From sequence record OP870146.1: a stretch of 64,000 nucleotides of DNA; one strand, 5' to 3'. This document shows, piece by piece, positions 3,628 to 58,312 of the stretch. The DNA is from Escherichia phage vB_Eco_F27. The notes below the pieces were generated by a model that made no database searches, was not told the origin of the DNA, and saw only the letters and a program-made list of their open reading frames with translations. Position 1 is the first letter of the stretch, and each line of letters begins with the position of its first letter. The position numbers and the translations under genes are program-made.

Positions 3628-3656
3628 AAATTAAAATGAAGCTCCCGAAGGAGCTT
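3628..3656 (-). terminator. rho-independent terminator (UUCG tetraloop)
   Basis: AAGCUCC-UUCG-GGAGCUU then UCAUUUUAAUUUU on minus transcript; between HNH and glycosyltransferase genes. Confidence 0.55.
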
Positions 3657-4452
3657 AGGACATCCAACACATTTTATAACCTTTGCAGGTTCTGTTAGGA
3701 TTATTTAATGCTTTCAATATATTAGAAGACCCTATATCTAAATACTCCCTTAATTCATAAAGATAGTTAAAATCAATAGTTTCACCTGTTTTTACACTTG
3801 TGATTCTTATAGGCCTTCTTTCATATTTAGATTTATACAACTCTCTAGTCTTAGCTTTAGTTTCTTCCGACCTAGGAGTGTATGGTTTAAATCCTTTTGT
3901 TTTAAATGTTTCCATTCTTGATTTAGTTATTTTATCCTGGTGTTCTTTTGTTTTTACAGGTGCTTTTCGCCCATTCTCCCAAGATAACTTATTGGCCTGT
4001 ATTATTTTATCTATTGCTTCTTGCGTATGAGTTTTACCATAAAATGGATTTAATTCGCCTATACGTTGTGAAGCAATATGTGACATTAATTCTCTTGTTG
4101 CTTTAGTATGTTTTTTACCTTTAAATGGGTTGCCATTTTTAGCAATCCATTCTTTCATAAATCTAGAGTGCTCTTTAGAGAATTCTTGTTTAAGCCAATC
4201 ATAATCTCTAGAATTTCTAGCTCCCATGTAAAAAGCTCTAATAGCCATAAGCATAGAACGGTTCTTATGAATTTTATAAAGCAATAAATGGGCGATAAAA
4301 TGCTCTCTAGGGGTCAATTTAACTAGATTTGATTTAGCATTACTCCCGCCCATAGATTTTGGCAATATATGATGTGTCTCAGTATAATTAGGAATAATGC
4401 TGCGGTTTTTAGCCGCAGCGATAAGTTTATCATAAATTTTACGATAATTCAT
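3655..4452 (-). CDS. HNH homing endonuclease with NUMOD3-type DNA-binding repeats
   Basis: HHILPKSMGGSNAKSNLVKLTPREHFIAH HNH motif; repeated GNPFKGKKHTKATRELMS / NPFYGKTHTQEAIDKI modules; start may be 4467 or 4452. Confidence 0.75.
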   Translation of the reverse strand: MNYRKIYDKLIAAAKNRSIIPNYTETHHILPKSMGGSNAKSNLVKLTPREHFIAHLLLYKIHKNRSMLMAIRAFYMGARNSRDYDWLKQEFSKEHSRFMKEWIAKNGNPFKGKKHTKATRELMSHIASQRIGELNPFYGKTHTQEAIDKIIQANKLSWENGRKAPVKTKEHQDKITKSRMETFKTKGFKPYTPRSEETKAKTRELYKSKYERRPIRITSVKTGETIDFNYLYELREYLDIGSSNILKALNNPNRTCKGYKMCWMS

Positions 4453-6272
4453 TATCCTAGCATCCAATCTTTACGGAGTTCAGGGTCGTTACCCATGAGC
4501 ATTTCAAATAGTTCTTTCCAATTTTCAGGAAGTTTAACTACGTCGTACACAGGGTTTTGAATCATTTCTTTATATTCATCTCGCTGAAGTGAGCCCAATC
4601 CCTTGATGTATCGAATACTATGCTTAGGCAGTGTATCTTTAACTTCTTCATACTCAGCTACAGTATAAAACCATTTTTGAGTTTTGCCAATTTGTGCAAT
4701 AATTACAGGCGTTTTAACAAAGCGAATACGTCCTTGTTCAAACAATTCAGGCCAATTACTAAAGAAAGCAAGCAAAGCCGGATAGATACTTCCAAGACCG
4801 TCATGATCGGCATCGGTCATAATTGCAATATTACGATAGTTCGTATTCTCTGCCTTTTCACCAAGAATAAGACCCGTGATAGCACAGATATCGAAGAGCT
4901 CTTTGTTCTTCATCATATCAGCATATGACATACCCCAGCTATTCATCACCTTACCACGTAATGGGAATCCGCCGTGTAGTTCACGGTCACGAACATCAAT
5001 GAGATAACCAATTGCCGAATCACCTTCTGTTAAGAACAATGTCGTATCTGCATCTTTACCACATTGGTTAGCTTTAATATGCTTATGAACCTTAGCTTTA
5101 GTTGCCTTTTTAGCTGCTTTAGTTTCTGCAGCCTTTTCTGCTGCCAATTTACGAGCTAATGCGGCTTCAACAATAGGCATAATCAAGGCTTCGTTTTTAA
5201 GAAGCGCCTGAGCAATTTTCTTAGCATCTAATTGGATATGATTACGAATATCACCATACGTTGACGTTAAACGTTCTTTAGTCTGAGAATCAAAACGCAT
5301 GTTGCTCATGTCTCTAATAAACATCAACATTGTGAGGCATTCTTTAACACGAGCTTTAGTGACTTCAATACCCTTATATTTCTTTTTAATACCCGGCAAA
5401 AGATGTTCGCAGATATCGTCCATTACACATTCAACATGATGTCCACCATTTTTAGTATGGATGTTATTCACATAAGTTAAATGACGGAAGCCATCTGGTG
5501 ATGTTGTGAATGCTATAGAGACTTTATCATTTTCTTGAATGATGTTATCTTCACCAAATTGTTTAGCAAATCGTTTAAAATTACCATCAACCTTTTTACC
5601 ATTAAATGTGAACTTGATATCAGGATAAACGACTGCCAATGTTTGAAGTCGGTCTAAAGTAATATCTAAATAAATTTGAGATAAATTATGCTCTTCAAAT
5701 GAAGAGAAATCAGGAGTGAAGATTACTTTAGTGCCTTTACCTTTAGATTTCTTAGAAGACCATGATTTGTTTTCCATTCCGTTTGAACAGTTAACAGTGA
5801 TTTCGTTTTCGCCATCTGACGTGATGCCTGTAAACAACGTAGAGAAGATATTAGTTAAACTACTCCCGACGCCGTTCATACCACCAGTCTTGCGTTCAGA
5901 GTCATCACCAAAGTTACCACCAGCCTTTGGAATAGTCCAGGCTGCTACAGGCCCAGGAATTTGTTCACCTGTTTGGTCGGTAACTAAACCTTGAGGAATA
6001 CCACGTCCGTTATCTTCCACCGAAACTTGATTATTTTTAATTTGCACATCAATTTTATTTGCAAACTTAAATGATGTACGAATAGCTTCATCAACCGAGT
6101 TGTCAATAATCTCATCGATTAATTTAACCAGACCAGGAACATATTCAACTTGTTGATATTTACCAAACAAAAAACGCTCATGGGCTTCTTTAGCAGAAGA
6201 ACCAATATACATACCACTACGTTTCTTAATATGTTCTACATCTGACAATACCTTAATTTCATTTTTAATCAT
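4452..6272 (-). CDS. 39: DNA topoisomerase II large subunit (GyrB-like ATPase), unsplit
   Basis: 606 aa, MIKNEIKVLSDVEHIKKRSGMYIGSS..., GHKL ATPase and Toprim motifs; single continuous ORF covering what T4 splits into genes 39 and 60. Confidence 0.9.
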   Translation of the reverse strand: MIKNEIKVLSDVEHIKKRSGMYIGSSAKEAHERFLFGKYQQVEYVPGLVKLIDEIIDNSVDEAIRTSFKFANKIDVQIKNNQVSVEDNGRGIPQGLVTDQTGEQIPGPVAAWTIPKAGGNFGDDSERKTGGMNGVGSSLTNIFSTLFTGITSDGENEITVNCSNGMENKSWSSKKSKGKGTKVIFTPDFSSFEEHNLSQIYLDITLDRLQTLAVVYPDIKFTFNGKKVDGNFKRFAKQFGEDNIIQENDKVSIAFTTSPDGFRHLTYVNNIHTKNGGHHVECVMDDICEHLLPGIKKKYKGIEVTKARVKECLTMLMFIRDMSNMRFDSQTKERLTSTYGDIRNHIQLDAKKIAQALLKNEALIMPIVEAALARKLAAEKAAETKAAKKATKAKVHKHIKANQCGKDADTTLFLTEGDSAIGYLIDVRDRELHGGFPLRGKVMNSWGMSYADMMKNKELFDICAITGLILGEKAENTNYRNIAIMTDADHDGLGSIYPALLAFFSNWPELFEQGRIRFVKTPVIIAQIGKTQKWFYTVAEYEEVKDTLPKHSIRYIKGLGSLQRDEYKEMIQNPVYDVVKLPENWKELFEMLMGNDPELRKDWMLG

Positions 6273-6311: not shown

Positions 6312-6337
6312 CTAAAGCAAAAAGGGCCGAAGCCCTT
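6312..6337 (-). terminator. rho-independent terminator (UUCG tetraloop)
   Basis: AAGGGC-UUCG-GCCCUU then UUUUGCUUU. Confidence 0.6.
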
Positions 6338-6763: not shown

Positions 6764-6943
6764 TTAACCCTTCTTAAGTAAGTCGTAAAAACCACCGTTC
6801 ACATGTTTAGGAGCAGAAACCCGACGAGTAGACAGACGATGACATTCAGGGCAAACATCGTTTTCTCGTTCAGAAATTCTTTTAATTTTTTCATATTCAT
6901 GACCACAATCTTCAGATTGGCATTTATAGTCGTATAACGGCAT
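6764..6943 (-). CDS. small zinc-ribbon protein (FmdB-like CxxC...CxxC)
   Basis: 59-codon ORF missing from track: MPLYDYKCQSEDCGHEYEKIKRISERENDVCPECHRLSTRRV...; fills gap between flanking genes. Confidence 0.5.
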   Translation of the reverse strand: MPLYDYKCQSEDCGHEYEKIKRISERENDVCPECHRLSTRRVSAPKHVNGGFYDLLKKG

Positions 6944-6948
6944 TATTA

Positions 6949-7377
6949 TTATTCCTTAAAATGTGCTTTCAACATTTGATACAAAGACCATGCCTGGTCA
7001 TTATTTTTGATAGTAATCGTCATCACAGGAAATTCAGACAATTCATCAAGTTCACCAGAATCTTGCTCTTCGGACGCTTGATACGGATTTTCAACTTCGT
7101 CAAAGAACTCTGCTTCATTCGTGGAAAGCCAGATAAAGTTTTCATCAAGGATATCACCGCCTGATGCATATCCAACCATGCCAGTAGATGTCACAATTTT
7201 GGTAGGACGTCCAAGATGGTCAACATCTAATACTTTAAATGGTTCCATGCCAAGACGTCGTGCATAAATCCCATTATCAGTGTGGTCTTTAATAAACTCT
7301 TCTTGGGCACGTTTATCTATAAATTGGTACCATGAATTAACGCGGAATTTATTAGCCATTAGTAAGTTTCCTTCCAA
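6949..7377 (-). CDS. hypothetical protein
   Basis: 142-aa ORF; acidic C-terminal half. Confidence 0.5.
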
Positions 7378-9174: not shown

Positions 9175-9669
9175 TTAATTAAGGATATTAACCACAGCAC
9201 TACGTGGAACTACACTAAAATCACCTGCATGAACAACGTTCAGAAGTTCAACACCGTCTTCAATCCACTGGTCGGTTACCCATCCACTCACTGGTCCTGC
9301 AAACGGACGTCGAATTGAAACAGCTTTACACAACAAATCAGTAGGCTCAATAGGCTTAATCAGAGTACCGTACATACAAGCGATATCCATATCAATACAG
9401 ATGTCTTTAACGGGTTCTACTTCTTCAATCAACAGTTCAAAGTCGGTGCTTGGAAGGGCGGTAGTAGAAATTGTACCATATGAATTTTTAATTTCTAAGA
9501 ATAACCAAGGGCCTTCAGCTTGTTTGATGAAGTTAACAATAGTGAAACTATTACCTTGAGTGGCACCTAAAATTTCACAAAACTTTTCATAAGCTCGCAC
9601 TGAAGCACCGTACCAGTTGATTTGTTTTTCGTCTTTCAGGATGTAAGTAGCCGTAGTATTGATATTCAT
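9175..9669 (-). CDS. hypothetical protein, tandem paralog family member 3
   Basis: GWVTDQWIEDGVELLNVVHAGDFSVVP motif related to paralogs 1-2. Confidence 0.55.
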   Translation of the reverse strand: MNINTTATYILKDEKQINWYGASVRAYEKFCEILGATQGNSFTIVNFIKQAEGPWLFLEIKNSYGTISTTALPSTDFELLIEEVEPVKDICIDMDIACMYGTLIKPIEPTDLLCKAVSIRRPFAGPVSGWVTDQWIEDGVELLNVVHAGDFSVVPRSAVVNILN

Positions 9670-14220: not shown

Positions 14221-14250
14221 TATCATAACACGAGAGGAGGGAATGTAAAC
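14221..14250 (-). promoter_or_regulatory. early promoter, spacer complementary to SD
   Basis: GTTTAC attccctcctctcgtgt TATGATAGGC; spacer CCTCCTC vs 5'UTR GGAGG. Confidence 0.55.
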
Positions 14251-14401
14251 TACTTTTTAAGCTTTCCTACTAAAGGTCCATCAGGGACAGGTTGTTCTAA
14301 CATGAATAACGATGCTTTAAAAAGCAATGTCAACCCTTTCACCATTCGATACCATGTCTCAAAGTCTTTTTCCTTGATTTCTAGTAAGAATTTCTCTTTC
14401 A
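14248..14401 (-). CDS. small hypothetical protein
   Basis: 50-codon ORF (MKEKFLLEIKEKDFETWYRM...) not in track; ATGA stop-start overlap with upstream gene. Confidence 0.35.
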
Positions 14402-14587
14402 TTTCCAAGGACTCCATGGTGGAGGGTCATCATAATAAGAGGCGAGGTCTTTCAGGACATCTAATGGTAAACTAAAGCCGTGTCGTTGTATAATACTATC
14501 TAGTTCATCAACAAGTTCACTACGATGCACTTTAGGAGCCTCAACTTCAGGCTCGTCAAACATACTCATAAGGTCCATATTATTCAC
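14399..14587 (-). CDS. hypothetical protein
   Basis: 62-aa acidic ORF. Confidence 0.4.
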   Translation of the reverse strand: MNNMDLMSMFDEPEVEAPKVHRSELVDELDSIIQRHGFSLPLDVLKDLASYYDDPPPWSPWK

Positions 14588-15044
14588 CTAAATAAAAACT
14601 AGGCTGCTCGGAGAATGTTTCTAGCGTTACACCTTTTGTCTTAAAAAATTTCCAAATAGCTCGTTGCAAATGGATTAAATCTGCTAATGATGTAATAAAG
14701 TATTTTTTGGCAAAATACATATGGTCTCGATTTTCAAACAGGTCTAAACGCTTTTCAGGATTCACATAAACAGCATTTTCTGTAGATTCATACCCTAAGT
14801 CCTTTATGCCTTCTTCAAGACTAAACGGAGAATTTTTAGAATGAGTAATAGCTCCAACTCGCTCTACACGAATTTTGTAACCTTTAGGAATCTGCAATTT
14901 GCAGAATTCTTCTACGATATATTGCGGATTATTTAGACTTTTGTTAATGAGAATAGCTATTTCTAGTGGAGTCTTATCTTCTACTGGTATATGTTTAAAT
15001 GACTTGGCTTCAAGCAAATACATTTTAAATAACATAGCATCCAT
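14580..15044 (-). CDS. hypothetical protein
   Basis: 154-aa ORF. Confidence 0.5.
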   Translation of the reverse strand: MDAMLFKMYLLEAKSFKHIPVEDKTPLEIAILINKSLNNPQYIVEEFCKLQIPKGYKIRVERVGAITHSKNSPFSLEEGIKDLGYESTENAVYVNPEKRLDLFENRDHMYFAKKYFITSLADLIHLQRAIWKFFKTKGVTLETFSEQPSFYLGE

Positions 15045-15223
15045 TATAATTTCCTCGATGGTTCACCCATATAAAGTTTTACAATACGTTCGCCTTCATC
15101 TTCGACGAGTTTTTCTTCATGTTTCTGGAATTCTTTAGCCATATTCTCTTCAAGAACATCTAACCAATCTTCTGGTCCGACTCCATCATTCCAGCTTTTA
15201 AACCATTTTACTATTCTGTTCAT
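15044..15223 (-). CDS. small hypothetical protein
   Basis: 59-codon ORF (MNRIVKWFKSWNDGVGPEDWLDVLEENMAKEF...) not in track; TAATG overlap with downstream gene. Confidence 0.4.
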   Translation of the reverse strand: MNRIVKWFKSWNDGVGPEDWLDVLEENMAKEFQKHEEKLVEDEGERIVKLYMGEPSRKL

Positions 15224-16840: not shown

Positions 16841-17859
16841 ATCTTCGAATAACGAGATAATCTCATTTTAGCATGCAACCCACTTGAAATATTCTGTTTC
16901 ATATATTCTAAAATTTCTTGTGGTGTTGCATTTTCTTTTATTACCATATCATTCACGTCCTTTGATCTCCATGGAGCTCGATCCCAGAACATGACACGTT
17001 CGCCTGCATCAACTAATCGCTTCATGCGAGCTATAGTATCTGGATGCCTAGGTTCATTATCCATTACCCATACCCGACGTTCTTTAAATGGTACCACATC
17101 TAAATCTATCGAGCCGCCTGTAATAGCGATTGCATTGGGTATGAATAAACTATCAATAGGGCCTTCCATTACCCAGACGTCCCCTTCCTTAACACGTTCA
17201 ACACCATAAATTTTTGTTGCAGACTCAAACGCTTTAATAGTGATATATTTCTGAGGAGCATCTTTACGAAGTGCACGTCCTTGGAATGACTCAGCCTTCC
17301 CATCTTTATTAAAAATAGGAATCACTAAACGTGGTTCGGGGATCTCTTTCTTATACGTACCAGGTTGAATCTTGTTGACCAATTTAGGCCATTCTAACGT
17401 GAACCATAATCTGTTCCATGATTCTTTAGGAATACACCGAGACTTAACATATTTCACAATAGGATGCTCTTCAGGCAACTTGTCCAGACGAGAACAAGAC
17501 GGCAAAGAATTTATAGTCTTTTTCTCTGGCTCCGGCTTAGCTTCAGGAACCTTTTCAATCTTTGGTTCCATTCTAGCTTTTTCTTTACGAACTTCCATTA
17601 GATATTCGCGATAAAGCTCTTCATCATACTCTTTTAAGTATCCGGAAATTGTATTGTGGTATTGACAATTATAGCAATGTACATTACCAGGAGTACCGCC
17701 ATAATACCATCCGCGAGCTTTCATTGCATCTGTCTGAGAGTCGCCACAAACTGGACAACGAAACGTTAATTTAAATGTGCTTGAATTATTGATTTGTCTA
17801 AAACGAGGGAGGTGAGAAAACGCACGATAAGCAAATTCATTATCTATCCATTCAGCCAT
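16837..17859 (-). CDS. 61: DNA primase
   Basis: 340 aa; N-terminal zinc ribbon CPVCGDS...CYNC and Toprim region; size and synteny as T4 gp61. Confidence 0.9.
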   Translation of the reverse strand: MAEWIDNEFAYRAFSHLPRFRQINNSSTFKLTFRCPVCGDSQTDAMKARGWYYGGTPGNVHCYNCQYHNTISGYLKEYDEELYREYLMEVRKEKARMEPKIEKVPEAKPEPEKKTINSLPSCSRLDKLPEEHPIVKYVKSRCIPKESWNRLWFTLEWPKLVNKIQPGTYKKEIPEPRLVIPIFNKDGKAESFQGRALRKDAPQKYITIKAFESATKIYGVERVKEGDVWVMEGPIDSLFIPNAIAITGGSIDLDVVPFKERRVWVMDNEPRHPDTIARMKRLVDAGERVMFWDRAPWRSKDVNDMVIKENATPQEILEYMKQNISSGLHAKMRLSRYSKI

Positions 17860-18378
17860 AGTATTCTCCAGAGGCCTTAAATTAATAAGGCCATCATATC
17901 ACAACTTATTAATATTTACTTTAATTCGCTTTCTTTTCTTGGAAGGAATTTGTTCTGGACCTTTATTTACGACTGCACCTGTAGTTGTTCCTGATGCAAT
18001 AGCTTGAGGACTACCGCCTGAATCACCGGCAACCAGTACCGCCATAATACCATCCGCGAGCTTTCATTGCATCTGTCTGAGAGTCGCCACAAACTGGACA
18101 ACGAAACGTTAATTTAAATGTGCTTGAATTATTGATTTGTCTAAAACGAGGGAGGTGAGAAAACGCACGATAAGCAAATTCATTATCTATCCATTCAGCC
18201 ATAGTATTCTCCAGAGGCCTTAAATTAATAAGGCCATCATATCACAACTTATTAATATTTACTTTAATTCGCTTTCTTTTCTTGGAAGGAATTTGTTCTG
18301 GACCTTTATTTACGACTGCACCTGTAGTTGTTCCTGATGCAATAGCTTGAGGACTACCGCCTGAATCACCGGCAACCA
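17693..18378. repeat. perfect tandem direct duplication, 2 x 343 bp (17693-18035 = 18036-18378)
   Basis: Direct sequence comparison: unit spans the 5' end of gene 61, the intergenic region and the 3' end of the upstream gene. Confidence 0.9.
18023..18202 (-). pseudogene. duplicated 5' fragment of primase gene 61 (59-codon chimeric ORF)
   Basis: Second copy of primase start MAEWIDNEFAYRAF...CPVCGDS...WYYGG runs into duplication junction and stops after TGCR. Confidence 0.6.
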
Positions 18379-18709
18379 TATCCTCAAATAAAGGGAGTTC
18401 TTTAAATATTTCTTTCTGTTGTTCTTCCGTAATGTTATAGCGTGAAGCTACAGCACTCCAGGCAGACATCATTGAGGCCATTCCATTAAGACCTGGAACA
18501 GTGCTCATCATTCGCTTCATTGAACGAACTGAAGCATGAAAAGGTGTATAAGCCGCTTTCTCTTCAGGAGTAGAAGGACGTTTAAGAACACTTCCACGTT
18601 CATCGATGATTTTGGCTTCGTACGCTTTCCATTCTGTAAAAGGTTTTTGCATTAGTCGAATAAACTTATATGCATAAACTGAATCTATTGCAGTGTTAAT
18701 AATACCCAT
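18242..18709 (-). CDS. hypothetical protein
   Basis: Start taken at MGIINTAIDS (AGGAGG SD); C-terminal basic tail KKRKRIKV; 3' end lies in duplicated unit. Confidence 0.5.
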   Translation of the reverse strand: MGIINTAIDSVYAYKFIRLMQKPFTEWKAYEAKIIDERGSVLKRPSTPEEKAAYTPFHASVRSMKRMMSTVPGLNGMASMMSAWSAVASRYNITEEQQKEIFKELPLFEDMVAGDSGGSPQAIASGTTTGAVVNKGPEQIPSKKRKRIKVNINKL

Positions 18710-25520: not shown

Positions 25521-26420
25521 TTATTCCTCGATTACAACATCTTCGTATTTAGGTATATTATACGGTGAAGAAATTAAAGCATTAAAGTAGATGAACTCAC
25601 CAAGACCTGGATGGAATACTTCTTCAGGATTTTCGAAATATTGAATCTTCGGACGTCCTTTAAGAATTTGATAGTACTCAGTTTTAGTTGGTTTAAAAAT
25701 TCGAATCAACGCTTCTTCAGGATACTTATTTCTGTCGAAGCTATTATTTGGATCGGTTATATAAAGCGGTTGACCTAATTGAATTGCGCATTCAACCACT
25801 TGTTCAAAACGATAGCATGGGTCACTAATTCGAAATGGATGAAAAATACCATCTAGATGAATAGGAGCCAAATCACCTACAAGACGCTGCATGATGGAAG
25901 GACGTATAACTTTCTGCGTTACGATAATCTTATTACCATCTGCACCAGCGTTAACCAGCACTTCTTTTTGACGTTCATTCAACACAGTAGTTTGAAGTGA
26001 ACGATTAACCGACAACATATCGGTTTTTAAGAATTCGTCAATATAAAAACGTGGTTTATTAGGGTCTGCAGTGATATTGAAATTGAATTCCACATCAAAA
26101 GCGCCGTCATATCCAGTGATATCTGTGATTAGAAAATCACAATCATAATAAGCAATTAATGAATCAACCACAAATTCATTTTCAGACCAGAAATATTTAC
26201 GAGTGTTATACGCGTTATCTTTATACCATAATGGAACAAACTTAAATTCTGGGAAAAGACGTTCACATTCTTTAATATCAGATGCATTACGTGGATATGT
26301 AATCACATCACCCGGATTAGCACGGTGCAAATGAAGTTGGAAGTTGCCATCCTTAAGGATAGCATACTGTCCAGTTTCATAAGACCGCATACTCAAAATA
26401 GGTACGCGGAAAATAGCCAT
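25521..26420 (-). CDS. hypothetical protein (candidate modification enzyme)
   Basis: 299 aa, no recognisable motif; in operon with gene 42 and Tmk-like kinase. Confidence 0.45.
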   Translation of the reverse strand: MAIFRVPILSMRSYETGQYAILKDGNFQLHLHRANPGDVITYPRNASDIKECERLFPEFKFVPLWYKDNAYNTRKYFWSENEFVVDSLIAYYDCDFLITDITGYDGAFDVEFNFNITADPNKPRFYIDEFLKTDMLSVNRSLQTTVLNERQKEVLVNAGADGNKIIVTQKVIRPSIMQRLVGDLAPIHLDGIFHPFRISDPCYRFEQVVECAIQLGQPLYITDPNNSFDRNKYPEEALIRIFKPTKTEYYQILKGRPKIQYFENPEEVFHPGLGEFIYFNALISSPYNIPKYEDVVIEE

Positions 26421-28634: not shown

Positions 28635-29036
28635 TTATAGATTCGGTTTATATGATTTAAATGTTTCGAATTCGCCTTTATTCATAAGAGCTTTGAATTC
28701 GTCAGGACGCATAGCTTTGTCGTCGATAATCCAATCATATACTGGTTTATGTGTTAGCAAATTATGGTACTTCAAGCCAATGTTTGCCAAGTTCTGAATC
28801 AGACTTGGGAGAATGTCAATTGCTATACGACCAGGACCTACTGACTTCATACCGCGAGCAGTGTAAAGCGTTATGGTATGCCCTGCATCATACAGAGCAT
28901 TAATGGCAGACACCATTTCGACGTCTGGTTTGAAGTTCACGTAATCACGATTGTTATTCCACTCTGTTATACAATCATCGACATCAAAACAAAGATTAAG
29001 CATGTTTTCTACACGGTGCATTAGATTCGTTCCCAT
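28635..29036 (-). CDS. small HAD-family phosphatase, KdsC-like
   Basis: Motif I FDVDDCIT (same spacing as KdsC FDVDGVLT), motif II TLYTAR, Lys and terminal DD motifs. Confidence 0.6.
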   Translation of the reverse strand: MGTNLMHRVENMLNLCFDVDDCITEWNNNRDYVNFKPDVEMVSAINALYDAGHTITLYTARGMKSVGPGRIAIDILPSLIQNLANIGLKYHNLLTHKPVYDWIIDDKAMRPDEFKALMNKGEFETFKSYKPNL

Positions 29037-30706
29037 TGATGAGTGATATCGCCACCGATTGGACGATAGGAAACACCAGTTTCTTTATCAGTTAGTACCC
29101 ATTTACCAGGATTTTTTGTAATCAGAGTAGCCGTTACAGGTTCTGCTACGTCATAACTAATAGAGCCGTCTTGAAGTACACGGCCCATATTACGTAATTG
29201 CTTAGTCAGAAGTTCCATACCTTTATAATATGCGGCTACCGCTTTAAGTGGATTATTCTTGAAATAACCACCTAATGCAATCCAGATAATTGCCACTGCC
29301 AAATGATGATACTCGTTAAACGAACTCATCTTTCCATATTTGTAAACTAATGGATTGATGTTAATAGTCACATTACAAGTTGTTTCATCAATAGTAAACT
29401 GTCCCCAGGTCGGATTAGCGTTGAATTCATCATAACCTGAAACAGCATAAAGCACTTTAGCTTCATCATACAATTTTGGCCCGTAAATCTTTGTTTCGCC
29501 AAAATATCCACGAGGGTCGATAAATTTGACTTCGCCGTTATCAGTAATCATAGTATTACTGAAGTTCGGGTCACCATGAATAACAGAGTACTGTCCCTGA
29601 GAACGGTTATGATAACGAATAAGGTGTTCTAAAGCTTGTTTCAGCATTGGCTTCAGACGTCCAATCTTAGTGTAGTTCACATGTGTGATTTTACCAAATG
29701 AATCAATCAATGGTTGAATGCTTTCACAACGATCAATAACTTTCGTATAGAATTCTTTAGTGAAATCACGACGAACAGTTTCAGGACTTACAAAATAAGT
29801 GTCTGTGCTGAATTTCAGTGCATCTAAAATTGCATCAACAATTTGTGGACGAGCAAGACTTGATTTGGATTTAATATATTCAAATGCCGGCTTACCTTTA
29901 ATGCGTTCCATTTCAAAGTTATTTTCATTAACAGAAACTAACTGAGGGACTGAATCTGATTTCACTTTCAAATACCACGAAATCTCATCTTTCTGAAGAG
30001 CTCGGCCCTGTTCGGTTAATGCGAATTTAGTTACAGTTTCTTCACCAATTTCAACTGCATTAAAACTACGATTAAGTTCACGAACTTCATGAGCTTTTTC
30101 AAGTTTAGGCATATCACCTAAATCAATTAGATTCATAAGCTCTGATTTATTGAATGCGCTGGCGTAAAGGAATTCTACGAAATCACGTCCTTTGCAGTAT
30201 TCATGAATTTCCTCATCGGTAGAACCCATATAGAATTCCCAGTCTTTGAACTGATAAATTCCTACAACATTACCACCTGTTGAACCTACGTTAGTGATAT
30301 TTTCACCGTCGAAATTATATCGACATTCGTCACCCTTAACATAGATTGCGTTAACATTCCAAGACCATGAACCAAAATCAGGAATAATATCACACCAGTT
30401 AACAATTACGTTATGGCCGTCTAAATCTTTGTGTAATTTAGCAAGAGCATAAGCAGAACCATACGCTTCATCAACTGTACGAATAGTCACATTGAACCCT
30501 TCTTGCTCACAATAAGCTCGAACAGTTTCAGCAAATTTTGAATGAACTACTACAATAATTTCATCTGCGCCAAGGTCAGAATAAATTGTATACAAATTGC
30601 TCAGAATAGTGTCTTGTTTATAGTTAACAAGCACCTTAGGAATATGATGCGTTATTGGATATAAACGAGTTGCCAATCCAGCACCAAGAATAACAGCTTT
30701 TTTCAT
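29021..30706 (-). CDS. bifunctional sugar-1-phosphate nucleotidyltransferase / APH-type sugar kinase
   Basis: N-terminus ILGAGLATRLYPIT..PKVLV (RmlA/GlmU-type G-x-G-T-R-L); C-terminus HGDPNFSNTMITDNGEVKFIDPRGYFG (APH/choline-kinase Brenner and DFG-like motifs). Confidence 0.7.
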   Translation of the reverse strand: MKKAVILGAGLATRLYPITHHIPKVLVNYKQDTILSNLYTIYSDLGADEIIVVVHSKFAETVRAYCEQEGFNVTIRTVDEAYGSAYALAKLHKDLDGHNVIVNWCDIIPDFGSWSWNVNAIYVKGDECRYNFDGENITNVGSTGGNVVGIYQFKDWEFYMGSTDEEIHEYCKGRDFVEFLYASAFNKSELMNLIDLGDMPKLEKAHEVRELNRSFNAVEIGEETVTKFALTEQGRALQKDEISWYLKVKSDSVPQLVSVNENNFEMERIKGKPAFEYIKSKSSLARPQIVDAILDALKFSTDTYFVSPETVRRDFTKEFYTKVIDRCESIQPLIDSFGKITHVNYTKIGRLKPMLKQALEHLIRYHNRSQGQYSVIHGDPNFSNTMITDNGEVKFIDPRGYFGETKIYGPKLYDEAKVLYAVSGYDEFNANPTWGQFTIDETTCNVTININPLVYKYGKMSSFNEYHHLAVAIIWIALGGYFKNNPLKAVAAYYKGMELLTKQLRNMGRVLQDGSISYDVAEPVTATLITKNPGKWVLTDKETGVSYRPIGGDITHQWERI

Positions 30707-30747: not shown

Positions 30748-30891
30748 CTAGTTAAAGCATTCATACTTTGCTTGTAGTCCAATCATAATCCATCCAATTA
30801 CAAGTGTTGGAATCATTACTGGAGCCGTTAAGCTCCAGTAGATAGTCATGACAAGCATCAATAGTAAAAGTCCTATTGTTATTGCTTTCAT
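30748..30891 (-). CDS. small membrane protein
   Basis: 47-codon ORF not in track (MKAITIGLLLLMLVMTIYWSLTAPVMIPTLVIGWIMIGLQ...); ATGA overlap with SIS gene stop. Confidence 0.4.
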   Translation of the reverse strand: MKAITIGLLLLMLVMTIYWSLTAPVMIPTLVIGWIMIGLQAKYECFN

Positions 30892-31523
30892 TGCTCGCCT
30901 CGTAACATGGCACCTAGTGCACCACCTGGATGGAACTTAAGGAAATCATTAGAGGTAAATCCACGTTCAGACGAAAGGTTGATAGCAAACGTATCGATAA
31001 GCGCTAACAACAATGTAGTGGACATAGTCGGAGCCAGAGAATTCTCATCAACCTCTACTGCGATGCCTGCACAGAAAGAATAATCAAAAAGGGCTTCATT
31101 TTCTTGTGGAATGTCCGGGTTACAATGCAACAGAATCTGTTTGACGTTCGGTCGAATCATTTTAAGATGCTTAGCCACGCCTATCATTTCTTCAGTTTTA
31201 CCAGAACGACTAATATGAATCAACACGTCATTAGGCGCAATAAATCCTGCATCACCGTGAGAATAATGCCCAGTGTTCAAGTACATACTCGGGATACCGA
31301 GTGAAGCAAATGTCTCAGAAGCTTTAGTTGCAATATTAGCATTCTTACCAACACCTGTAATAATTACACGACTTTCATAATTACTCAGTCCCGGGCGTCG
31401 AAGAGTTTCTAGAATAGCATTATAACGAGCAGGGTTTTGACTAATTACTTTGGCCATAGCGGCCAAAGAAGAAGCTTGTTTTATGATTGCGTCAATAGCG
31501 ATAGTAATAGGAGTAGTTTTCAT
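30888..31523 (-). CDS. SIS-domain sugar-phosphate isomerase, arabinose-5-phosphate isomerase (KdsD/GutQ)-like
   Basis: VIITGVGKNANIA ... HGDAGFIAPNDVLIHISRSGKTEE ... APTMSTTLLLALIDTFA ... FHPGGALG match SIS motifs. Confidence 0.75.
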   Translation of the reverse strand: MKTTPITIAIDAIIKQASSLAAMAKVISQNPARYNAILETLRRPGLSNYESRVIITGVGKNANIATKASETFASLGIPSMYLNTGHYSHGDAGFIAPNDVLIHISRSGKTEEMIGVAKHLKMIRPNVKQILLHCNPDIPQENEALFDYSFCAGIAVEVDENSLAPTMSTTLLLALIDTFAINLSSERGFTSNDFLKFHPGGALGAMLRGEQ

Positions 31524-40916: not shown

Positions 40917-40959
40917 ATTATTTCCTCATTAGTTAATTCATTCTATCATCCGTTTATAA

Positions 40960-40988
40960 AGCAAAAAAAGGAACTCCGAAGAGTTCCT
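40960..40988 (-). terminator. rho-independent terminator
   Basis: AGGAACUC-UUCG-GAGUUCCU then UUUUUUUGC. Confidence 0.65.
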
Positions 40989-41159
40989 ATCCACATAGTA
41001 CACCATACAGAGGCTCATTTGAACTTTTAAATCGAATGGGCTTGTACGTAATAGTTCCTTCGGCTTTAGCTTTATCATAAGACTCTTTAAAACGTCTCAT
41101 TCTTTCTGCTTTGCCTTTACGGATTTTATCGAAATTTTCAGAAGTCGGGATGTTCGTCA
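40986..41159 (-). CDS. small hypothetical protein
   Basis: 57-codon ORF not in track (MTNIPTSENFDKIRKGKAERMRRFKESYDKAKAEG...). Confidence 0.35.
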
Positions 41160-41199
41160 TGCATAAGCACCTCTCAGAAAATACCTAAACCGATTTCTC

Positions 41200-45411: not shown

Positions 45412-45882
45412 TTAATCATGTTTCCACACCCCATCGGTATTTGACCAAAGTCGCTGATTATCTGATCCTCGCCACAGCTTTTTAGTCGGAAGATTTTTCT
45501 CATACTTCCCATCAATAATAACATCAACATATTTAAGCATTTCTAGTTGTTTAATATCTTCAAACTTATATCCTGTCCACAACCAAATGCTTTTATTGGG
45601 ATAAAGATTTTTTACTGTTTGAACAATGCAATGAATAACATCTCGGTTATCAGGATAGAGAGGGTCACCTCCGGTTATAGTTAATCCTTCTATATAATCA
45701 TTATTCAAACATTCAATTAATTGTTCTAGTGTTTCACCAGTGAATGGAACACCATTTCTAGCATTCCATGTTGATTTATTATAACACCCTTCGCATTTAT
45801 GCAAACAACCCGTAACGAAAAGAACGACCCTGCATCCAGGGCCATTCACAAAATCGCAAGGATAAAATCTATCATAATTCAT
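45412..45882 (-). CDS. nrdG: anaerobic ribonucleotide reductase activating protein (radical SAM)
   Basis: CLHKCEGC CxxxCxxC motif near N-terminus; 156 aa. Confidence 0.93.
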   Translation of the reverse strand: MNYDRFYPCDFVNGPGCRVVLFVTGCLHKCEGCYNKSTWNARNGVPFTGETLEQLIECLNNDYIEGLTITGGDPLYPDNRDVIHCIVQTVKNLYPNKSIWLWTGYKFEDIKQLEMLKYVDVIIDGKYEKNLPTKKLWRGSDNQRLWSNTDGVWKHD

Positions 45883-47158
45883 TGGTGTTTAACCCTATGC
45901 ATGATTTCTTTATTTTTACCGAGATTAAATCCGCGTTCGTTCGGATTTCCCAAATAACCACATGTTCTTCTTATTGTGTTCATCTTTTTAGGATCAGTTT
46001 CTCCACAAATAGAACAAACAAATCCGTTTTCAGTAGGAGTCATTTCATGGGTACTTCCACATGTAAAACATTTATCTACTGGCATATTAACACCAAAATA
46101 ATCTAAATGTTGTGCAGCATAATCCCATACGGCCTCAAGGCCTTTCAAGTTATTTTTCATATCAGGAAGTTCAACATAAGAAATGTGACCACCTGTCGCA
46201 ATGAAATGATATGGCGCTTCACGAGAAATCTTTTCAAACGGAGTAATATTTTCTTCTACTGAAACATGGAAACTGTTAGTGTACCAACCTTTATCGGTAA
46301 CATCTTTTACGCTTCCATATTTTTCTGTATCAAGTTTACAGAAGCGGTAACAAAGGTTTTCAGCAGGAGTAGAATACAAACTAAAAGCAAATCCAGTTCT
46401 TTCGGACCACTGTTTAAGATGAGCATTCATTTTAGTTAAAATTTCTTGCCCAATATCACGACCGACAAGAATATTCAATTCGTGAATACCAATGTATCCT
46501 AAAGACACTGAACTTCTACCGTTTTTAAATAACTCAATTATGTCGTCATCAGGTTTAAGACGAACCCCGAATGCACCTTCTTGGTAAAGAATAGGAGCAA
46601 CAGTCGCTTTAACACCCTTTAAAGAACTAATTCTACACATCAAGGCTTCAAAACACAGATCCATTCGTTCATTAAACAATTCGATAAATTTCTGTTCATT
46701 GAACTGTGTTCCAATATAAGAATCTAATGCGATACGAGGAAGATTCAGTGTTACAACACCAAGATTATTACGTCCATCAAGAATTTCATTACCGGTTGAA
46801 TCTTTCCACACACTCAAAAAACTGCGGCAACCCATTGGAGAAACAGGAATAGATGAGCCGGTGATAGCTTTATTGTTCTTAGCTGAAATAATATCAGGAT
46901 ACATTCTTTTGCTTGCACATTCTAACGCAAGTTGTTTAATATCATAGTTCGGATCATCTTTATAAAGATTAACACCTTCTTCAACAAACATAACAAGTTT
47001 AGGAAAAATAGGAGTTATTCCATCACGACCAAGGCCTTTAATGCGGTTTTTAAGAATTGCCTTCTGAATCATTCGTTCAGTCCAGTCAGTTCCCGTACCA
47101 AATGTAATTGTTACAAAAGGCGTTTGACCGTTTGAACTGAAAAGTGTATTTACTTCAT
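45879..47158 (-). CDS. nrdD: anaerobic ribonucleoside-triphosphate reductase, exon 2
   Basis: C-terminal glycyl-radical motif RRTCGYLG and Zn site CFTCGS...CSICG; joins exon 1 to give 605 aa. Confidence 0.88.
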
Positions 47159-48202
47159 CATTATATTCAGCATGAGTCGCAAATTCATGCCCGTTTATAT
47201 GAAACAACAAAATTTGGATAGTCCATAGATATGCAACGTTCTTTTATAGTGCTAGGATGAAAATTTAGCGCTTTAGCTGCTTCTATATAAGACGTATACT
47301 TAATACCGTCAACAACCACATATTCAGGAACTTTATGAATAGTAGTCTTAATACTCAAAACAAGAGGATGAGTTTCGACTTCACTTTCAGTGCAATTTAA
47401 ATATTCCGCTGCTTTTTTAAAACTTCTAAAAGTTTTATTTTTAAGCTTTATCGATACTTGTTTTTTACTTTTTCGACTATTGATATTATTTTGCACATGT
47501 TCCTTAGATCTTCCGTTTTTAGCATAATATTCAGCTACAGAAGATTTTATATTGTTTTTATGAGATTCGGATAACACTTTACCCTTATGAGCATCTCTTA
47601 ATTTTTGAATATGTTCTTCAGTATCCGGATGCTTATAAAACTTTTTACCGCCTATGGATTTATTTAAACATTTTTTGCTATAAAAATATTTACGTATGAC
47701 CTCTTCTTCATGTTTTAATGCATCTTTATAACTATCAAATGTTTTTAAAATTATCCATTTAGTAGGTGTATCAGTTTTTAAGCGTTCATTTATATACTTA
47801 GATGACGTTGTGTAAGTTTTCCAGTTTGTGGGCTTGTTTTTAATTGTTCTAAATTTTTTATAACCGATATAAATGTCGCCATTAGAAAACTTAACTAAGT
47901 ATGTAAATGCGTCTTTATCTTTTATTTTAGTACAACGTCTTTTATCCATTTCATTGTTTCACCTCGTATTCATAAGATAATCTTATTTATACAAGATGAC
48001 TGCTGCATGTCGCCATGCAGATTAGACTATATCTTCATCTTTCGATGCCGGTCGTTTCGAATAGCATTAGCTTCTATTCTACACCGCTACATTCATCACG
48101 GTTAGTCGTTAGGCATTTAGTTCAAAAGAACATTTAGCACGGGATTGTCTACTAGAGAGGTTCCCCGTTTAGACCGGTTTTACATGAGCCTGAATTAAAT
48201 TA
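47159..48202 (-). mobile_element. group I self-splicing intron in nrdD carrying a homing-endonuclease ORF
   Basis: nrdD frame interrupted for 1044 nt; exon 1 ends in U, intron ends in G; joining restores ...AFQAYE-YEVNTLFSS...; untranslated structured segment 47950-48202 then HEG ORF. Confidence 0.8.
47185..47949 (-). CDS. GIY-YIG homing endonuclease (I-TevII-like), intron-encoded
   Basis: N-terminal TYLVKFSNGDIYIGY GIY-YIG module; basic C-terminal DNA-binding repeats; lies inside nrdD intron. Confidence 0.75.
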   Translation of the reverse strand: MDKRRCTKIKDKDAFTYLVKFSNGDIYIGYKKFRTIKNKPTNWKTYTTSSKYINERLKTDTPTKWIILKTFDSYKDALKHEEEVIRKYFYSKKCLNKSIGGKKFYKHPDTEEHIQKLRDAHKGKVLSESHKNNIKSSVAEYYAKNGRSKEHVQNNINSRKSKKQVSIKLKNKTFRSFKKAAEYLNCTESEVETHPLVLSIKTTIHKVPEYVVVDGIKYTSYIEAAKALNFHPSTIKERCISMDYPNFVVSYKRA

Positions 48203-48740
48203 ACTCATACGCCTGGAACGCGTCATAGACATCTTTTTCTGTTTTAGATTGAGCATAATTCAACGCATCAGCGATTTGCCATTTTTCTGCATCTTCAACA
48301 TGTTTAGCGTATGTGCGTTTAACATAAGGAGAAAGTACTTTATCGACATTCGCAAATGTAGTTCCGCCATACTGGTGTGAAGCAACTTGTGCAGTAATTT
48401 GTGCCATAATTGCAGTAGCAACGCCAATAGATTTAGGCGTTTCAATTTGAGCATTGCCTAATTTAAATCCATTCTCAAGCATCCCCTTTAAATCGACCAA
48501 ACAGCAATTAGTAAACGGAAGAGCAGGAGAATAATCAATATCATGCATGTGAATGATTCCGCTTTCATGCGCATTCATAATAAAAGACGGGACCATATTT
48601 TTGGCAATGTGCTTAGACACAATACCAGCCATAAGGTCCCGTTGAGTTGGAAAAACACGAGAATCTTTATTAGCATTCTCGTTCAAAAGATCTTTATTAG
48701 TTTTATGAATTAATCCTTCAATTTCTTTTTCAATTTTCAT
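48203..48740 (-). CDS. nrdD: anaerobic ribonucleoside-triphosphate reductase, exon 1
   Basis: MKIEKEIEGLIHKTNKDLLNENANKDSRVFPTQRDL...; in-frame stop 2 codons after splice point. Confidence 0.88.
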
Positions 48741-49971: not shown

Positions 49972-50328
49972 TTAGCCCCGGAGTTTATTGAGCTCTTCAT
50001 AATCAATCCAGGATTCTAGCCCTGACGGCAGGTCACATTCAATGTTCCACAGAAGCTCTTCAATGGCTTGCAGGCGATTATATTCTTCAACGGTAATGGT
50101 AACCATTGGTGCAACCGGTTCTGCCTTTTTAACCATCATATCGTTCATCAGGACGTAAAGGTCATCACGAACGTCAGTGTCGTTCCAACCCCATGATTTG
50201 GCTTCGTAAGCTAATGATGAAGTGAGCACATTTAAAACTTCAATAATAGTTGGAGCATCAGGACCAAGTTCATTGGCACAAACTTCGTATACATCTTGGA
50301 AATCTTTAAGATTTAATGAATATGTCAT
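49972..50328 (-). CDS. hypothetical protein
   Basis: 118-aa ORF. Confidence 0.45.
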   Translation of the reverse strand: MTYSLNLKDFQDVYEVCANELGPDAPTIIEVLNVLTSSLAYEAKSWGWNDTDVRDDLYVLMNDMMVKKAEPVAPMVTITVEEYNRLQAIEELLWNIECDLPSGLESWIDYEELNKLRG

Positions 50329-58063: not shown

Positions 58064-58312
58064 ATTATTCACCAATTAAAGTTTCAACAAAATTCACTAA
58101 AGCATTCTGGCAAGCATCAACCTGATTTCTATAAAAATTAAATAAGATCCATCAATTTATTAGCTTGTTCACGAGTCATTTTACCATGCTCGCTTCAATA
58201 AGATTCATTACACCATTTACCATGTTATAGGTAAACATCGGATAATTGTATTGTACTACAACATAAGCGATAAGCAAAAGTTTCATTTTGTTCTCCATTT
58301 GTTTTGGTAGGA

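Follow-up and report, generated by a model that had tools for sequence, protein, structure and literature searches.

Early transcripts of T4-type phages are polycistronic, and their genes lie on the same strand and are commonly joined by ATGA or TAATG junctions, with overlapping or abutting stop and start codons and with the SD of a gene located in the gene upstream. A review on post-transcriptional control in T4 does not discuss translational coupling. Expression of several small T4 genes has been analyzed in a multi-omics study, in which mass spectrometry revealed the proteins a-gt.2 and ModA.4, while 39.2 was found as an early transcript and its protein was undetected in the same proteome study (PMC9697503 Table S2). 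T4 gene 39.2 has been studied by genetic and biochemical means, and it has been described that its product, Gp39.2 (58 aa, NwgI), shifts GroEL to an open, GroES-binding conformation, that it suppresses groEL/groES alleles, and that deletion of the gene blocks growth on specific groEL mutants (PMC5153855; PMC4396842; both citing Ang and Georgopoulos, 2012, Genetics 190:989, PMID 22234860).

The window analyzed here, a stretch of 64,000 nucleotides from Escherichia phage vB_Eco_F27 (OP870146.1), corresponds to the early region proximal to rIIA in the genome of an RB69-like Mosigvirus of the T4 family. It is collinear with RB69 (AY303349) from rIIA onward, with 92-98% DNA identity, and a stretch of about 2 kb around gene 39.2 is 98-99% identical at the DNA level to many Escherichia and Shigella Mosigvirus phages (Straboviridae, Tevenvirinae). 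The minus strand carries nearly all genes of the window, and the content is that of a T4-type early/middle region, which leads from rIIA to topoisomerase, the mod/mrh cluster, the replication genes, and nrd. Mapping of the RB69 proteins onto the window resulted in 108 minus-strand genes with 107 junctions. An Rfam scan of the whole window at the gathering threshold gave no match. Five short ORFs of this region had been listed in a preliminary description as small genes that are invisible in an ORF track. All of them are located on the minus strand, which had not been given there:

6764-6943, minus strand: gene 39.2, 59 aa from ATG to stop, 100% amino acid identity to RB69 39.2
14250-14402, minus strand: RB69ORF020c homologue, 50 aa from the ATG of the ATGA junction, 91.5% amino acid identity to RB69
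15044-15223, minus strand: RB69ORF024c homologue, 59 aa from ATG to stop, 89.8% amino acid identity to RB69
30748-30891, minus strand: RB69ORF054c homologue, 47 aa from ATG to stop, 100% amino acid identity to RB69
40987-41160, minus strand: a-gt.2, 57 aa, 94.7% amino acid identity to RB69

The first, third, and fourth of these coordinate sets had been given exactly; 14248-14401 was out of register with the second ORF (14250-14402, or 14250-14417 with 55 aa for the longest ORF), and 40986-41159 was off by one. Very probably, the five ORFs are genuine conserved small genes of an RB69-type phage, with 39.2, the gene at the head of the preliminary description, being the orthologue of NwgI, and their junctions represent normal T4-type architecture. 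All five are already known, as each matches a CDS that was annotated in RB69 (AY303349) in 2003. In other Mosigvirus records 39.2 is annotated as a CDS, and the homologues of ORF020c and ORF024c as well as a-gt.2 are annotated in most records, while the ORF054c homologue is without annotation in about one third of the records listed, mainly of Tequatrovirus and Dhakavirus. The five genes are invisible only in the sense that they are missed under a 60-codon cut-off; they are hidden from nothing else, and they are annotated in RB69 and most relatives. The window contains at least six further genes of less than 60 codons, and a 60-codon ORF filter hides about one tenth of the genes in this T4-type early region (11 of the 108 modelled genes). 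The discovery value of these genes is small, and their practical value lies in annotation quality. Several database product names have been attached to them without any test behind them, e.g., "FmdB-like transcriptional regulator", "molybdenum ABC transporter", and "head maturation protease". Mildly new are the gaps in the T4 reference annotation and the conserved overlap, with its putative coupling, of the 47-aa membrane peptide, which has an intact T4 homologue with an ATGA junction to imm.

Conservation in related genomes had been named as a check, and it is present. A lack of conservation or translation evidence, which had been named as the refuting case, therefore does not apply. A tblastn search in 50,697 phage records retrieved 39.2 in 955, a-gt.2 in 815, and the ORF054c homologue in 575 records, each in several genera, and the homologues of ORF020c and ORF024c in 153 records each, all of them Mosigvirus. 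All five ORFs match PHROG families, four of which are of unknown function. Codon alignments with relatives revealed clear purifying selection in four genes, in which variability at the third codon position is dominant, and a weaker signal in the ORF020c homologue. The literature on T4 adds the mass spectrometric detection of a-gt.2 and ModA.4 and the phenotype of 39.2; a literature search for ribosome profiling of T4 yielded nothing specific. The claim that the small ORFs are real genes is thus borne out by their conservation in 153 to 955 records each, by the RB69 annotation, and by purifying selection on four of the five.

Several of the small genes had also been described as joined to their neighbors by stop-start overlaps, and translational coupling had been deduced from that. 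The overlaps are present at three of the five genes. The start codons of the homologues of ORF020c, ORF024c, and ORF054c form 4-nt ATGA overlaps with the stop codons of modA.2, ORF025c, and the SIS-isomerase gene, respectively, and the stop codon of the ORF024c homologue overlaps by 1 nt, as TAATG, with the start of the downstream mrh-like gene. The overlaps of the ORF024c homologue are kept as ATGA, TAGTG, or TAATG in all five loci. The claim does not extend to 39.2, which is separated by 5 nt from the TAA of goF and by 2 nt, between its own TAA and the next ATG, from the gene downstream, nor to a-gt.2, which begins 39 nt after a-gt.3 and ends 70 nt before gene 47. In comparison with T4-type coupling at ATGA and TAATG, two of the five genes are therefore without overlap. 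The features next to 39.2 and the gene upstream of the ORF054c homologue are as follows:

6949-7359, minus strand: goF, 136 aa, upstream neighbor of 39.2; mapped from RB69 goF (94.9%) and named goF in phage Mizar
6949-6957, minus strand: goF stop codon TAA (6949-6951) and SD AAGGA for 39.2 (6953-6957), the SD lying within the last goF codons
6336-6761, minus strand: RB69ORF005c homologue, 141 aa, downstream neighbor of 39.2
6322-6337, minus strand: terminator-like hairpin AAGGGCTTCGGCCCTT with a T run behind it, at the end of the cef-goF-39.2-ORF005c cluster
30888-31523, minus strand: SIS-isomerase gene (RB69 ORF055c), its stop overlapping the start of the ORF054c homologue

The proximity that characterizes a coupled pair, namely a stop codon that overlaps the start codon or is only a few nt away from it on the same strand, is found at 39.2 and at the homologues of ORF020c, ORF024c, and ORF054c, and a-gt.2 lacks it. 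From this anatomy we infer that translational coupling of small genes with their upstream neighbors is plausible. The five genes sit in a densely packed ("hyperplastic") early/middle region of an RB69-like Mosigvirus and are very probably transcribed leftward, in polycistronic units. The SD of a small gene is part of the last stretch of the gene before it, so that ribosomes terminating upstream could re-initiate at the next start or unmask it.

Alternatively, the overlaps might result from genome compaction only, with each small gene being initiated independently at its own SD. This explanation has to be taken seriously, although we regard it as somewhat doubtful. A good SD core (GGAG, GAGG, or AGGA at -18 to -4) precedes the start codons of all five small ORFs, as well as 66 of the 108 modelled genes, compared to 4.0% of the other 1,597 minus-strand ATGs. 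Independent initiation would thus suffice. Overlaps are also generic in the window, where 35 of the 107 junctions overlap (15 by ATGA, 7 by one base, and 13 by longer stretches), so that overlapping is the rule in this region rather than a feature that sets the small genes apart. The absence of overlaps at 39.2 and a-gt.2 and the drift of the overlap form among ATGA, TAATG, and TAGTG are likewise in agreement with compaction. However, the behavior of the ORF054c family is not easily reconciled with it. The gene before this family is the superinfection-immunity gene imm in Tequatro-, Dhaka-, and Gaprivervirus, and the SIS-isomerase gene of the arabinosyl-hmC cluster in Mosigvirus and Kanagawavirus. 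Despite this exchange, the start codon overlaps the upstream stop codon in ten of ten loci from five genera, nine times as ATGA and once as TAATG (imm is upstream in T4, T2, VR5, IME540, and VR26, the SIS isomerase in three Mosigvirus and two Kanagawavirus-type loci). The junction of goF and 39.2, where the SD is part of goF, is also nearly invariant, and ATGA junctions are well known in bacteria and phages as sites of termination-reinitiation. Among the indirect indications of functional coupling, the overlap at the ORF054c homologue, which is kept whichever of the two genes is located upstream, is the strongest.

The product of the ORF054c homologue is predicted to be a small membrane protein with two hydrophobic segments, in agreement with two hydropathy maxima (at about residues 5-17 and 26-36) and a GRAVY of 1.36. 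It matches PHROG 3610 over residues 1-47 of 47 (E 6.8e-27); Pfam PF26865 is precomputed on relatives with 94-96% identity, and the local Pfam copy gave no match. The dN/dS is 0.21-0.32 across five genera, and the alignment of relatives contains the conserved motif MIPTL..GW....LQ.KY.CFN, including the C-terminal LQxKYxCFN. The RB69 sequence is 100% identical over 47 aa and is annotated as a protein of 36 aa that starts at an internal Met. The peptide had been placed inside a sugar operon, and indeed it is encoded between the SIS-domain gene and the following gene:

29021-30706, minus strand: nucleotidyltransferase/kinase gene (ORF053_52c), 561 aa, with the ORF054c homologue upstream of it

The SIS gene and ORF053_52c have been proposed to be UDP-arabinose genes for arabinosyl-hmC DNA in a publication in which ORF054c is unmentioned (PMC6024577). 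However, T4 contains an intact homologue of 49 aa (MKSKIIAALLLILMIIISIYYSVTVPLMIPTIILGWSLLLLQVKYECIN) in the "imm-42 intercistronic region", between imm and gene 42 and with its ATGA on the imm stop codon, and the peptide is therefore not specific to the arabinosyl-hmC pathway. The T4 homologue is without annotation in NC_000866 and AF158101, so that a conserved membrane ORF of 49 aa between imm and gene 42 is missing from the T4 reference records. In the record of phage VR26 the phage's own copy is named "similar to T4 gp42.1", and a literature search on "gp42.1" found nothing relevant. A locus search in IMG/VR retrieved only two loci, a word search of 5.8 billion proteins three relatives, and an exhaustive HMMER search three credible short relatives together with spurious matches to long membrane proteins. 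As the HMMER search gave no credible relatives outside these phages, the family appears to be confined to T-even phages. Comparisons with Imm and with T4 47.1 revealed no significant similarity. One could speculate, though we consider it rather unlikely, that the peptide is an unrecognised membrane partner, e.g., of Imm or of a membrane-associated machinery for nucleotide or DNA modification, which is made in a fixed ratio with its upstream neighbor.

The weakest signal of purifying selection among the five genes is that of the ORF020c homologue, with RB69ORF020c as its direct orthologue. BLASTP with T4 ModA.4 gave an E of 1e-7 and 37% identity over 49/50 residues, which is a weak relationship. 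Both proteins have in common their length, the mod/mrh neighborhood, and the C-terminal PDGPLVGK, and the gene order differs, being srh, modA.4, modA.3, modA.2, modB in T4 and modA.2, the ORF020c homologue, modB in the window. The protein thus resembles ModA.4, which by its sequence would be only a distant relative. It matches PHROG 5790 (E 4e-21), and the ATGA overlap of its start codon with the modA.2 stop is found in the window, in RB69, and in LF82-1. The dN/dS is 0.09 versus RB69 and 0.57 versus LF82-1, the latter value being derived from few changes. This high value could indicate that the ORF is decaying or dispensable, and it would fit that the third codon position is not enriched in variable columns (8, 4, and 7 for the three positions), that the gene is confined to one genus, and that the ORF is frameshifted in phage ECCR664. 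The ECCR664 record, however, is an incomplete genome of 134 kb, and the shift is located in an A-run. Decay is improbable in view of the intact ORF in 153 Mosigvirus records with 76-98% identity, the low dN/dS versus RB69, and the PDGPLVGK motif that is common with T4 ModA.4, a detected protein.

The ORF024c homologue encodes a Mosigvirus-specific, acidic protein of 59 aa with a pI of 4.9, which matches PHROG 10443 (E 7e-44). Its dN/dS values range from 0.11 to 0.64, based on few changes. In comparison with ESCO47, the most divergent genome, 26 of 31 synonymous and 22 of 146 non-synonymous sites are changed, with a pN of 0.15 and saturated synonymous change. The basic 57-aa protein a-gt.2 belongs to Pfam DUF5486 (PF17588; 97.3 bits at a cut-off of 27) and has a dN/dS of 0.19-0.36. 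It is 76% identical to T4 a-gt.2, with which it shares the C-terminal motif EGTITYKPI.FKSSNEPLYGVLCG, and is encoded between a-gt.3 and gene 47 as in T4. Differences are the annotated length of 63 aa in T4 and the absence from the window of a-gt, mobB, and 47.1, which are located between a-gt.2 and gene 47 in T4. A putative terminator begins at the a-gt.2 stop codon:

40969-40988, minus strand: terminator-like hairpin AGGAACTCTTCGGAGTTCCT followed by TTTTTTG

For these two genes and the homologues of ORF020c and ORF054c, we infer at most a family or a type of protein as a clue to function.

The zinc-ribbon peptide that had been quoted for 6764-6943, CQSEDCGHEYEKI...CPEC, was correct. The protein of 59 aa has an FmdB-family zinc ribbon with Cys at positions 8, 13, 31, and 34, and it scores above the cut-offs of Pfam PF09723 Zn_ribbon_8 (49.3 bits, cut-off 34.4) and NCBIfam TIGR02605 (CxxC_CxxC_SSSS; 48.0, cut-off 31.3). 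The four Cys are arranged in two knuckles around a spacer of about 17 residues, and C13, C31, and C34 are invariant in the alignment of relatives. The N-terminal MPxYxYxC motif, the four Cys in two knuckles, and the G-G-F-Y after the ribbon are common to the FmdB family and 39.2; in contrast to the family, the first knuckle of 39.2 is C-x4-C (CQSEDC) instead of CxxC, and a Ser-rich tail is absent. An AlphaFold2 model, based on an alignment of nine sequences, had low confidence (mean pLDDT 52.5), and therefore the predicted zinc-ribbon fold is deduced from sequence-family membership only. A PDB sequence search gave only insignificant matches to L31 zinc ribbons (E > 0.3). The invariant tail NGGFYDLLK was considered as a mimic of the GroES mobile loop, and this idea was rejected because it found no support; a family feature is likelier, as some unrelated viral proteins of the FmdB type also have a G-x-G-F-Y motif behind the ribbon. 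Selection on 39.2 is strong, with a dN/dS of 0.04-0.08, saturated synonymous sites, and 12, 9, and 41 variable columns at the three codon positions.

As in T4-type relatives, 39.2 directly follows goF and precedes topoisomerase gene 39. Within its cluster, cef and goF overlap by 1 nt, goF and 39.2 are 5 nt apart, and 39.2 and the ORF005c homologue are 2 nt apart. The goF/39.2 junction ...TTTAAGGAATAA(n)ATG hardly varies among 17 distinct T-even loci, in which the spacer measures -1 to 7 nt. RB69 Gp39.2 is identical to the protein of the window (100%), and RB69 and T4 have the same synteny (goF, 39.2, gene 39) and the same goF junction; in RB69 the goF stop and the ATG are separated by 2 nt, versus 5 nt in the window, and there is otherwise no difference of substance. 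In the T4 reference, two frames match the 39.2 protein of the window, with 73% identity for residues 1-44 and 85% for residues 45-57, and in the T4 reference records 39.2 is annotated with only 45 aa, owing to a frameshift in the sequence as deposited. Judged by its sequence, the 39.2 gene of the window is the orthologue of RB69/T4 gp39.2 (NwgI), a GroEL modulator. Ang and Georgopoulos are said to have first selected the gene as RB69 39.2. Its product would act on host GroEL, favoring the open form that binds GroES or the phage co-chaperonin, and in this way the phage would grow better on hosts whose GroEL is suboptimal.

The product name "FmdB-like transcriptional regulator", which RefSeq and PHROG use and which is found on many records, would instead make 39.2 a DNA-binding transcriptional regulator. 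Membership in the FmdB family and the vicinity of modifiers of transcription and RNA metabolism (cef, goF, motB) could be cited in its favor. Nevertheless, such a role is highly improbable: the name is inherited and represents a family label, not a tested function, the zinc ribbon of 59 aa is without a recognisable DNA-binding domain in Pfam, and the sole experimental data on 39.2 are GroEL/GroES phenotypes (PMC5153855; PMC4396842).

The idea that the five small ORFs arose by chance in non-coding DNA between real genes deserves practically no credence, in spite of their size of only 47-59 codons in AT-rich DNA, of a 44-codon ORF on the plus strand of the 39.2 gap, and of several other "small ORFs" of the 2003 RB69 annotation that turned out to be pieces of longer genes split by sequencing errors (PMC6024577), because an ATG ORF of at least the observed length was rare in 20,000 shuffles per gap (P = 0.0004 for 39.2, 0.010, <0.00005, and 0.008 for the homologues of ORF020c, ORF024c, and ORF054c, and 0.014 for a-gt.2), the SD core is present at five of five starts versus a background of 4%, curated family models match, the reading frames stay open in several genera and their dN/dS is far lower than 1, and the T4 proteins a-gt.2 and ModA.4 have been detected by mass spectrometry.

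Eleven of the 108 minus-strand genes that were modelled by mapping RB69 proteins onto the window encode fewer than 60 amino acids. The preliminary description had listed five small ORFs from the sequence alone, and the RB69 annotation (AY303349) adds the following genes with fewer than 60 codons:

14399-14563, minus strand, modA.2, 54 aa
43441-43575, minus strand, 55.4, 44 aa
49673-49843, minus strand, ORF087c/089c, 56 aa
49833-50000, minus strand, 49.1, 55 aa
58558-58737, minus strand, mobD.2a, 59 aa
approximately 58065-58244, minus strand, tk.1, 59 aa

The small ORF of 47 aa at 30748-30891 has an intact homologue in T4, a hydrophobic ORF of 49 aa between imm and gene 42 (NC_000866, 26227-26376, minus strand). 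It is annotated neither in NC_000866 nor in the second T4 reference record, AF158101, and its ATGA start overlaps the stop of imm. The T4 version of gene 39.2 (6764-6943 in the window) is located at 5663-5839 (minus strand) in NC_000866, where it is annotated with 45 aa. Beyond the residues ...VSA, the +1 frame reads on as PKHGNNGFYDLLKG and completes the published protein of 58 aa, and therefore the deposited sequence contains a frameshift. Full-length 39.2 is encoded in other T4-type records. In phage VR26 (1201-1641) the frame of 39.2 extends to 146 aa in an apparent fusion with the downstream gene, which may be real or may be due to a sequencing error. A frameshift is also found in the homologue of ORF020c (14250-14402) in the incomplete, 134-kb genome of phage ECCR664 (approximately 1990-2153). 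It lies inside an A-run, so that the ORF is a pseudogene there unless the homopolymer was misread in sequencing.

In T4, JS10, and ESh27, the small predicted membrane gene 47.1 is located directly upstream of gene 47, within the interval that follows a-gt.2. The window lacks 47.1, and all that is left of this interval is a spacer of 70 nt (40917-40986) with a terminator-like hairpin. In public records, a-gt.2 (40987-41160) carries names like "head maturation protease" and "prohead core protein protease", and the modA.2/ORF020c region (14250-14563) carries names of the type [quoted passage not shown]. These product names have spread without support.

Six adjacent pairs of CDSs in the 2003 annotation of RB69 each correspond to one longer ORF in the window:

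9175-9669, minus strand, single ORF for ORF012c and motB.1
14580-15044, minus strand, single ORF for ORF022c and mrh
18242-18709, minus strand, single ORF for 61.1 and ORF032c
25521-26420, minus strand, single ORF for ORF046c and 047c
29021-30706, minus strand, single ORF for ORF052c and 053c
49972-50328, minus strand, single ORF for ORF091c and 092c

The split between 052c and 053c is a published sequencing error of RB69 (PMC6024577), and the other five splits are probably sequencing errors as well.

A segment of 343 bp that reaches from the 3' end of 61.1 into the 5' end of the primase gene 61 is present as an exact tandem duplication (17692-18034 and 18035-18377). RB69 has only one copy of this segment. 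The duplication creates an extra ORF of 59 aa (18023-18202, minus strand), residues 1-56 of which are the N-terminal zinc ribbon of the primase. It is either a very recent event or an assembly artefact. Two insertions are also present in the window and absent from RB69:

3655-4467, minus strand, ORF of about 265-270 aa resembling HNH homing endonucleases in sequence (ETHHILPKSMGGSNAKSNLVKLTPREHFIAH), about 790 bp inserted
47185-48234, minus strand, intron plus endonuclease insertion in nrdD, from an Rfam RF00028 match and an ORF

The HNH-like ORF is flanked by the arabinosyltransferase gene (ORF003c) and the topoisomerase gene 60plus39. The gene nrdD (45879-48740, minus strand) is split by a group I intron, which matches RF00028 at 48003-48234 (73.1 bits, E-value 3e-18). 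A scan of the whole window (1-64000) at the gathering threshold yielded no Rfam matches. The speed filters dropped the intron in this larger search; with only 1.6 kb searched, its score of 73 bits exceeded the gathering score of 50. Downstream of the intron lies a GIY-YIG homing endonuclease ORF of 254 aa (47185-47949, minus strand), which is labelled "intron-associated endonuclease 2" in relatives. With 47000-48400 of the window as a query (1.4 kb), at least 80% was covered at one place in 43 phage records.
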